Source of the DNA: Escherichia coli
GTDB lineage: Bacteria > Pseudomonadota > Gammaproteobacteria > Enterobacterales > Enterobacteriaceae
Length of the DNA stretch: 15,676 nt
NCBI RefSeq assembly: GCF_003334305.1
Contig: NZ_QOWS01000041.1
Strand: one strand, 5' to 3'
The notes under the pieces are model-generated. The model was given only the letters and a program-made list of their open reading frames with translations. It had not been told where the DNA came from and ran no database searches. A program made the position numbers and the translations under genes. How positions within the stretch are numbered: position 1 is the first letter of the stretch; every line of letters starts with the position of its first letter. Shown piece by piece: positions 10,608-10,678 of this stretch.

Positions 10608-10635
10608 GTACCCCTCATAAAATAATTTTTTATCG

Positions 10636-10676
10636 TAACAATATCAGAATATGTTCTCATTTGACTGATATTGTTA
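10636..10676. promoter_or_regulatory. Perfect 12-bp inverted repeat (TAACAATATCAG / CTGATATTGTTA) with a 17-nt spacer in the crcB 5-prime region
   Basis: Read directly. It lies between the small ORF stop (10679) and the crcB start (10607). On the minus-strand RNA the hairpin is followed by an A/U-rich tract and then the crcB ribosome-binding site. Confidence 0.5.
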
Positions 10677-10678
10677 AT

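Follow-up and report, generated by a model that had tools for sequence, protein, structure and literature searches.

An intercistronic hairpin upstream of crcB in a Tn3-family transposon remnant on Escherichia coli virulence plasmids

The crcB block and its transposon ends

The window analysed here, which is the whole 15.7-kb stretch of DNA, corresponds to the iuc/sit virulence region of ColV/IncF plasmids, with iucABCD, an MFS gene (shiF-like), crcB and sitDCBA as the annotated neighbours. The crcB gene (10227..10607, minus strand; start codon ATG at 10605-10607) is an intact ORF annotated by PGAP as a fluoride efflux channel of 126 aa. Its product matches NCBIfam NF010792 with 175.8 bits (cut-off 125) and is 93% identical to the CrcB of Rosenbergiella metrosideri. 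Upstream of crcB on the same strand lies a small ORF of the orf59 family (10679..10894, minus strand), taken from the ORF list and its homologues, which is preceded by GGAGG and encodes a predicted two-helix membrane protein. Between crcB and sitD, PGAP annotates eno and tnpA as partial pseudogenes. The enolase pseudogene (10948..11361, minus strand), a phosphopyruvate hydratase gene without the N-terminus, spans profile positions 287-422 of 425 and retains the C-terminal third only. The second pseudogene is a 249-bp 3' fragment of a Tn3-family transposase gene, also without the N-terminus, at 11368..11616 on the plus strand. The preliminary description of this DNA had taken 11383..11621 as the region upstream of enolase; this stretch belongs instead to the transposase fragment, which lies on the opposite strand.

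Inverted repeats of 41 nt (10023-10063 and 11634-11674) delimit the block and contain Tn3-family terminal repeats of the GGGG type. The repeat finder and comparison with relatives place the left terminal inverted repeat, GGGGGGTGAGGGCCAGTGATGTAAAAAATACGCCAAGAGG, at 10036..10073 on the plus strand, preceded by AATTTT, and the right terminal inverted repeat at 11624..11661 on the minus strand, followed by AATTTT. Positions 11357-11665 are 92% identical to the tnpA 3' end and adjoining inverted repeat of Tn3-family elements on other plasmids. From the left inverted repeat (~10035), the window is homologous to its relatives through crcB, orf59 and eno as far as 11358, beyond which homology to the 3' end of tnpA takes over. 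The 1.7-kb segment is present at 99% identity or more in ~1000 plasmid records; in the collection of complete E. coli genomes searched, 1008 of 5426 contained it, nearly always plasmid-borne, such that about a fifth of these genomes carry the crcB remnant, on ColV/IncF virulence plasmids.

Intact relatives of the operon and the missing fluoride riboswitch

The intact order of the operon is fluoride riboswitch-ppaC-usp-eno-orf59-hairpin-crcB, which is found in a Rosenbergiella genome, several metagenome contigs and one complete transposon. R. metrosideri, which carries all of these features in this order, was the only close genomic relative among 100,044 species representatives (CrcB 93% identical); the CrcB search of genome contigs returned this one close relative and one distant one. 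Contigs that encode small-ORF homologues have ppaC-usp-eno-orf59, some of them followed by crcB and others not, and all orf59 contigs that reach the operon start have the fluoride riboswitch model (RF01734) before ppaC. This model scored 41-55 bits upstream of ppaC in every intact relative (L003-L005, L007-L010, L017, Rosenbergiella L018 and L022, L008 and L009 included). Plasmid operons of K. pneumoniae, K. variicola and Pantoea have the order ppaC-usp-eno-(gpmA)-crcB, are ~70-74% identical, and each possess the riboswitch before ppaC.

In gene set and gene order, these operons resemble the Enterobacter cloacae FRM operon ppaC-uspA-eno-gpmA-crcB-orf5249 (Liu et al. 2017, PMC5533749). A Mn-dependent pyrophosphatase, a universal stress protein, an extra enolase and CrcB are common to the E. 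cloacae FRM operon and the relatives of the window. Structured spacers between the enzyme genes and crcB are a further likeness, as is RF01734 before ppaC in the window relatives. The fluoride operons of the Klebsiella and Pantoea plasmids (L003-L005) are related to the E. cloacae FRM operon, with a nucleotide identity to the window of only 70-74%. In contrast to E. cloacae FRM, the window copy consists of eno' (3' third)-orf59-crcB only, with no riboswitch; gpmA is found there, whereas the window has the orf59 small membrane-protein gene and an AU-rich hairpin before crcB. In E. cloacae FRM the upstream genes were induced ~100-fold and crcB ~10-fold, and the operon gave two mRNAs, one of which ends after eno (PMC5533749).

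The complete transposon was found on a metagenome contig (L021/L022) and reads IR-tnpA-tnpR-riboswitch-ppaC-usp-eno-orf59-hairpin-crcB-IR, flanked on both sides by the 5-bp duplication ATTGA. Its tnpA is frameshifted, with matches to NF033527 at 784 and 276 bits, and a serine resolvase gene is present; with terminal repeats of the 38-bp GGGG class, tnpA, resolvase and the 5-bp duplication, the element belongs to the Tn3 family. The general likeness is to Tn3-family transposons with passenger operons, in which terminal repeats of 38-40 bp begin with GGGG and the 3' end of tnpA abuts one of the repeats. In comparison to complete Tn3-family elements, the window copy has shrunk by deletion to 1.6 kb and is non-autonomous; it has kept both inverted repeats and is flanked by a 6-bp direct repeat, AATTTT, as opposed to the 5-bp duplication of the relative. 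No description of a Tn3-family fluoride-resistance transposon was found in the literature, as far as the incomplete literature searched reaches.

Comparison with the relatives demonstrates, at the level of sequence, that the window element is an internal-deletion derivative in which the 3' end of tnpA is fused to the middle of eno, and that the deletion removed most of tnpA, tnpR, the promoter, the riboswitch, ppaC, usp and the 5' part of eno. The DNA lost from the window comprises tnpA save its last ~300 bp and the first 2.6 genes of the operon, including ~286 eno codons. The window has no riboswitch because this internal deletion took it out; its absence reflects a deletion in a Tn3-family transposon and is not the sign of an unknown fluoride sensor for crcB. 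By the same comparison, the plasmid crcB is the stranded remnant of a mobile fluoride-resistance operon, which was probably acquired from Erwiniaceae-like bacteria. The history would run from a Tn3-borne fluoride operon, via the deletion, to an orphan crcB in ExPEC virulence plasmids, and its practical value is one of annotation, as it identifies a pseudo-operon, transposon ends and an unannotated small protein gene.

The Rfam models at gathering score gave no match in the whole 15.7-kb window, and RF01734 (gathering threshold 34 bits), when run with permissive filters over both strands of 10000-11900, was absent even at E<=10. The latter result is meaningful because the same model scores 38.7-54.9 bits at 13 places in related loci. 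The matches returned by the E-value search of 10000-11900 (mir-277, U54, Yfr10 and others, at 14-22 bits) belong to eukaryotic miRNA, snoRNA and unrelated sRNA models, lie far below gathering and were set aside as generic hairpin or AT-rich matches. In the relatives, RF01734 precedes ppaC, ~3 kb upstream of crcB, and that DNA is absent from the window. The hairpin described below resembles the fluoride riboswitch aptamer (crcB motif, RF01734) in genomic neighbourhood only, being located just upstream of a crcB gene; unlike the aptamer, it is simple, with no pseudoknot, none of the conserved aptamer nucleotides and no match in sequence or structure. The preliminary description had reported no fluoride riboswitch upstream of crcB or the enolase fragment, as is borne out here for the window, and its statement that such genes are often under riboswitch control agrees with the position of RF01734 before ppaC in the related loci.

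Structure and conservation of the hairpin between orf59 and crcB

A perfect 12-bp inverted repeat with a 17-nt spacer had been noted previously at 10636..10676, directly upstream of crcB, whose A/U-rich leader and ribosome-binding site follow it. The repeat finder returned the same arms, 10636-10647 (TAACAATATCAG) and 10665-10676 (CTGATATTGTTA), of 12 nt each and 100% complementary; both are given as read on the plus strand, with crcB on the minus strand. Direct reading of the sequence gave the same placement. In mRNA sense, the stop codon of the small ORF (10681-10679) is followed by the hairpin (10676-10636), CGAUAAAAAAUUAUUUUAU, GAGGGG, UAC and the crcB AUG. The A/U-rich leader CGAUAAAAAAUUAUUUUAU (10617..10635, minus strand) is single-stranded and extends from the hairpin to the ribosome-binding site, and the length of its A-run differs between relatives. 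The crcB Shine-Dalgarno sequence GAGGGG (10611..10616, minus strand) was read from the sequence; GAGGG is invariant across the alignment of 10 variants described below, and the final G varies in two of them.

The RNA hairpin (10636..10676, minus strand), as defined by the repeat finder, the predicted fold, the 10-variant alignment and RNAalifold, has two parts. Its lower stem of 12 bp is the reported inverted repeat (10676-10665 with 10647-10636, minus strand). This is followed by a 3-nt bulge, UCA (10664-10662), a 4-bp upper stem in which AAUG (10661-10658) pairs with UAUU (10651-10648), and the hexaloop AGAACA (10657-10652), all on the minus strand. When the 15.7-kb window was simulated with a first-order Markov model, ~2% of the simulations contained a perfect 12-bp inverted repeat with a spacer of 3-30 nt, and the fold of the 106-nt RNA was better than that of 200 out of 200 dinucleotide shuffles (z = -3.17). 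The inverted repeat is real, and a chance origin is unlikely.

The hairpin is present between orf59 and crcB in L008, L012, L014-L018 and L020-L027. It is confined to the crcB locus: of the 806 places at which it was found, in 798 plasmid records, nearly all are copies of this locus with an identity of at least 99%. The ~800-1200 plasmid records that are at least 99% identical are of no use for covariation and are uninformative on selection for the hairpin in its present host. Conservation was instead assessed in an alignment of 10 distinct variants of the orf59-crcB spacer, the window included, which are 85-95% identical; besides the window, they come from R. metrosideri, from an anchored DNA-pattern scan of metagenomes (three new variants) and otherwise from the contigs with small-ORF homologues. 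The structure tested, which was defined from the window and the relatives, consists of a lower stem (columns 27-38 with 56-67), a 3-nt bulge, an upper stem (columns 42-45 with 52-55) and a hexaloop. Standard pairs occupy 92.5% of the 160 pair cells of the 10 variants, compared with 27-52% when the partner is slid by 1-3 columns, and RNAalifold independently gave the same structure of 12 bp, bulge and 4 bp. The long hairpin is the minimum-energy fold in 8 of 10 variants, at -10.9 to -16.3 kcal/mol; the lower stem is partly broken in L017 and L023 (-6.7 and -5.5 kcal/mol).

Few pairs have changed on both sides. At 42-55, six variants have G-C and the window has A-U; at 43-54, L014 has G-C where the other nine have A-U. 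Pair 44-53 switches among U-G, U-A and C-G. There are only two compensatory pairs, both in the 4-bp upper stem, and the lower stem is without double changes. The covariation score of 0.156, compared with 0.128 +/- 0.012 in shuffles (reached by 6 of 500), comes from only 10 closely related variants, and a set of relatives this small can surpass the shuffle control even where no structure exists. The upper stem and loop change fastest, with 5 of 17 positions differing from the closest relative as compared with ~9% overall, and pairing is kept or improved.

The two strands differ in how well the pairing holds. The repeat is perfect in the window only, as pair 34-60 is G-U in all nine relatives. 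Across the alignment there are 20 G-U cells and 2 A-C cells, such that pairing reaches 92.5% on the crcB-sense strand and 81% on the other. This asymmetry of wobble pairs is the pattern predicted for an RNA structure on the sense transcript, and not for a DNA operator or an antisense terminator. Conservation of the flanking non-coding sequence is similar to that of the stem, with a mean column identity of 90%. Overall, the conservation evidence for the hairpin structure is moderate rather than decisive.

Three other mechanisms were considered and rejected. A terminator acting on the antisense (plus-strand) transcript is disfavoured by the poorer pairing of that strand across relatives (81% versus 92.5%), with the window copy itself folding on both strands. 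Translational coupling of orf59 and crcB through the hairpin fails as a general mechanism: the stop codon abuts the hairpin in the plasmid copy only, where a 1-nt deletion has replaced the last 2 residues of the small ORF with a 14-residue tail and the stop ends 2 nt before the hairpin, and in relatives the small-ORF stop codon is located 38 nt upstream of it. Sequestration of the crcB start by an upstream CAUGUA involves a 6-bp pairing that needs a window-specific base, and the consensus fold around the crcB Shine-Dalgarno sequence and AUG contains only a weak, invariant 5-bp helix.

A second intercistronic hairpin, GC-rich and degraded in the plasmid copy (9 of 12 pairs), is located in the spacer between eno and the small ORF (10906..10935, minus strand), as identified from an alignment of 11 variants. 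In that alignment the eno-orf59 hairpin is 91.7% paired, and four of its pairs show compensatory change. The Pantoea and K. variicola plasmids without orf59 carry unrelated hairpins between eno and crcB.

Expression of crcB and possible roles of the hairpin and orf59

Transcription of the plasmid locus has been measured by qRT-PCR in pS88, in which all ORFs tested but one gave a transcript in LB; those transcribed in LB, without fluoride, included crcB, the small ORF and the enolase fragment (pS88/pAMM; PMC3438092). In urine in vivo, the fold changes relative to LB were 776 for sitA, 140 for sitD, 18.7 for the enolase fragment, 9.7 for ORF16 and 6.1 for the CrcB-like gene; in urine ex vivo they were 83.9, 26.3, 8.0, 4.1 and 4.2, respectively (PMC3438092). 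The crcB fold changes in pS88 were not significant (p = 0.05-0.8), and these values are ratios and not absolute levels (PMC3438092). The further a gene lies from the sit promoter along the minus strand, the weaker its induction (PMC3438092). A terminator scan of the minus strand from sitD to crcB found no terminator-like site, sitD being followed by a weak AU-rich hairpin only. From the published qRT-PCR gradient and the lack of a strong terminator we infer read-through from sit. The data suggest that plasmid crcB transcription is now fluoride-independent and arises partly by read-through from sitABCD. The crcB gene would be transcribed at a low level, at least in part by read-through on the same strand from the Fur/MntR-regulated sitABCD operon, and its expression is probably tied to this neighbouring iron/manganese operon. 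The regulation of crcB, which the preliminary description treated as an open question, is now less open, since crcB transcripts were detected without fluoride in pS88 and induction there weakens away from the sit promoter. To our knowledge, the chromosomal crcB of E. coli is also without a fluoride riboswitch; riboswitch-free expression of crcB is not unusual in E. coli.

For the hairpin, the interpretation that we consider reasonably probable as a whole is that of a conserved intercistronic RNA hairpin of a transposon-borne fluoride operon, which has lost its riboswitch by deletion, where it would serve as a boundary for mRNA decay or processing in front of a crcB no longer under fluoride control and partly transcribed by sit read-through. 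The hairpin would act within the operon mRNA, as a crcB-sense structure separating orf59 from crcB, the final two cistrons. Its most likely function is that of a boundary for mRNA decay or processing, by which it may shield the upstream segment from 3' exonucleases or mark the adjoining A/U-rich tract as a point of endonuclease cleavage. In combination with the eno-orf59 hairpin, it may set the amount of crcB message relative to that of the enzyme genes, and it would leave the ribosome-binding site and A/U-rich leader of crcB unstructured. The make-up of the related operons favours an RNA-level element between cistrons, given the covariation in the eno-orf59 hairpin, the other hairpins ahead of crcB in lineages that lack orf59, and the two transcripts of E. 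cloacae FRM (PMC5533749).

Stem-loops within operons that give differential expression include the REP hairpins in malEFG, the hairpins of the Rhodobacter puf operon and those involved in papB-papA processing. The window hairpin is similar to such intercistronic mRNA stem-loops in that it lies between two cistrons, is formed on the sense strand, has no U-tract and adjoins an A/U-rich single-stranded segment, and in that its pairing appears to be conserved rather than its loop sequence. Unlike known intercistronic stem-loops such as the REP hairpins, it is not a repeated element and occurs at one locus only. By position and structure, it is an element of an ordinary kind, another example of an intercistronic mRNA stem-loop. 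No description of the window hairpin, or of regulation of the plasmid crcB by fluoride, was found in the literature. An operator, an attenuator and a terminator had been proposed for the inverted repeat in the preliminary description; the conservation pattern brings an attenuator or RNA-level role closest, an operator is disfavoured and the features of a canonical terminator are absent.

An internal sigma-70 promoter for crcB within the hairpin, perhaps improved by plasmid substitutions after the loss of the riboswitch promoter, is unlikely to account for the element. Transcripts from such a promoter would start in the 3' arm and carry the A/U-rich leader only. A scan found a weak sigma-70-like match (10648..10677, minus strand; 9 of 12 matches) composed of a -35 TTAACA (10677-10672), an 18-nt spacer and a -10 CATATT (10653-10648). 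In the window, changes of G to A and C to T (columns 53 and 55) lift the -10 match from 2/6, as in the closest relative, L018, to 4/6, and crcB transcript was detected in LB, where the sit genes are repressed. However, five such sites were found where 4.8 are expected in shuffled sequence, and the 18-nt spacer and lack of a T at the first position of the -10 are suboptimal. Both substitutions, moreover, lead to better pairs in the upper stem (A42-U55 and U44-A53), so that the hairpin explains them equally. The -10 is window-specific and absent in 9/10 relatives, and the conserved structure can therefore not be put down to a promoter. It is likewise doubtful that the hairpin provides active, riboswitch-independent control of the fluoride channel, be it through a new internal promoter or by setting the stoichiometry of CrcB and the 59-aa membrane protein. 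If it did, the plasmid-specific substitutions would have made a promoter and rendered crcB constitutive after the deletion of the riboswitch, or, in the case of hairpin-set stoichiometry, the co-transcribed 59-aa membrane protein would be a functional partner of the CrcB channel; ExPEC virulence plasmids would then have retained a fluoride-export module under new control and in linkage with the sit and aerobactin loci.

A partial Rho-independent terminator or attenuator after the small ORF, past which only some polymerases would reach crcB, appears distinctly unlikely. The hairpin is located just past a stop codon, related operons make a short and a long mRNA (PMC5533749), and the eno-crcB spacer of other lineages contains hairpins that resemble terminators and end in U-rich tails. 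Against this, the stem is AU-rich, with three G-C pairs in the 12-bp lower stem, and is followed in the window by the tail CGAUAAAAAA, which has no U-run and is A-rich in all variants; the terminator scan did not call the hairpin. The pS88 fold changes of ORF16 and crcB are similar (4.14 versus 4.19 and 1.77 versus 2.40; PMC3438092), and the break after eno in E. cloacae matches the eno-orf59 hairpin instead.

The hairpin may also be a relic with no role in the plasmid, and perhaps none elsewhere, that persists through the short evolutionary distances among the sampled copies, which we regard as quite improbable. The comparable conservation of the flanking non-coding sequence and the partly broken stem in two relatives are in keeping with a relic, as is the decay of the neighbouring eno-orf59 hairpin in the plasmid copy. 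However, the fastest-changing part, the upper stem and loop, keeps or improves its pairing, the wobble asymmetry is strand-specific and the fold has a z-score of -3.2.

The least credible reading, which we consider highly improbable, is a DNA operator at which a dimeric transcription factor represses or activates crcB: the window does contain a perfect 12-bp dyad overlapping the weak promoter-like match, but the dyad is imperfect at the DNA level in 9/10 variants (G opposite T at pair 34-60, still paired as RNA), the 20 G-U cells are mismatches in terms of duplex symmetry, the half-site centres are 29 bp apart, the upper stem co-varies in a manner not predicted by a protein half-site model, neither the element nor its intact relatives contain a regulator gene, and the window has no further site beyond chance (three matches with at most two mismatches, two of them the arms; 16 of 200 shuffles were equal). 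It was rejected on the lack of extra sites beyond chance together with the wobble asymmetry.

The small ORF is, by the conservation of its coding sequence, a real gene. Its homologues are conserved in length (59-65 aa) and in the pattern of two hydrophobic helices, with dN/dS values of 0.07-0.39 and dS greater than 1 between lineages. The small ORF had no match in Pfam or NCBIfam, and when 1.8 billion proteins are clustered at 50% identity, orf59 accounts for only 22 clusters; it is unannotated in the RefSeq plasmids. It is a candidate new member of the fluoride regulon and, as such, of more note than the hairpin. The orf59 gene is always located in fluoride operons, and in contig L029 it is a lone gene with an RF01734 riboswitch and a terminator of its own in front.

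The small ORF family of fluoride-riboswitch operons

The small ORF located between the enolase fragment (eno') and crcB (orf59; window 10679-10894, minus strand) is a member of an unannotated protein family, whose proteins are 59-65 aa in length with two predicted helices and exhibit dN/dS values of 0.07-0.39. The small ORF had no match in Pfam or NCBIfam, and at 50% identity the 1.8 billion proteins searched contain just 22 clusters of the family. Every copy with a readable neighbourhood is contained in or adjoins a fluoride-riboswitch operon. In one contig, L029, the small ORF (L029:675-863) appears alone, ~200 nt downstream of its own riboswitch (L029:407-478; Rfam fluoride riboswitch model RF01734) and terminator, and a K. 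pneumoniae plasmid has a distant, unannotated copy with eno on one side and gpmA on the other (L003:~5100-5330, minus strand). The small ORF is thus a candidate new fluoride-regulon protein.

Relative to all of the 59-aa homologues, the plasmid small ORF has suffered a 1-nt deletion in an A-run (window 10700-10712, minus strand), with CAAATAAATAG becoming CAATAAATAG. As a result, the last two residues are exchanged for a 14-residue tail, and the stop codon is shifted to 2 nt before the orf59-crcB hairpin (window 10636-10676, minus strand).

Additional RNA elements in and near the operon

The spacer separating eno from the small ORF contains another conserved intercistronic hairpin, with a GC-rich stem of 12 bp (window 10906-10935, minus strand), directly 5' of the small ORF Shine-Dalgarno sequence. 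In an alignment of 11 variants of this spacer (A4), pairing is kept in 91.7% of cells, and compensatory changes occur at four pairs; in the window the hairpin has decayed, with 9 of the 12 pairs remaining. Its position corresponds to that of the break between short and long mRNAs reported in the fluoride operon of E. cloacae FRM (PMC5533749). Rosenbergiella metrosideri possesses a second fluoride riboswitch (L018:5507-5576, minus strand; 50.2 bits), on the strand opposite to crcB and about 130 nt downstream of it, which controls a convergent transcription unit.

The transposon and its surroundings

A complete Tn3-family transposon of ~7.9 kb was identified in the metagenome contig Ga0183101_1000531 (L022:3428-11285 and L021:~3337-3399), flanked by a 5-bp target duplication, ATTGA. 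Its cargo is a fluoride-riboswitch operon, and the whole element reads IR-tnpA-tnpR-riboswitch-ppaC-usp-eno-orf59-crcB-IR; our literature search found no description of a Tn3-family transposon carrying such an operon. The element in the window (10036-11661) is a deletion derivative of 1.6 kb, with the 6-bp direct repeat AATTTT on both sides (10030-10035 and 11662-11667).

The only structure downstream of sitD is a weak hairpin, AU-rich and with UUUUGUUG as its tail (window ~11768-11795, minus strand), which is consistent with sitABCD transcription reading through into the crcB remnant. A published qRT-PCR gradient in plasmid pS88 also suggests such read-through (PMC3438092).

The transposon end region 3' of crcB contains an inverted repeat whose 23-bp arms match perfectly around a loop of 8 nt (window 10108-10161). 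The repeat is also present in those relatives that reach as far as the left IR, and similar sequence (81-86% identical) is carried by other plasmids that lack crcB. The repeat may be a 3' stabiliser or terminator of the operon, or may instead belong to the transposon end. Two other perfect inverted repeats are found in the window: one in AT-rich sequence near the iutA end (418-470), with arms of about 18 bp and a spacer of 17 nt, and one of about 14 bp within the MFS (shiF-like) gene (9219-9271).
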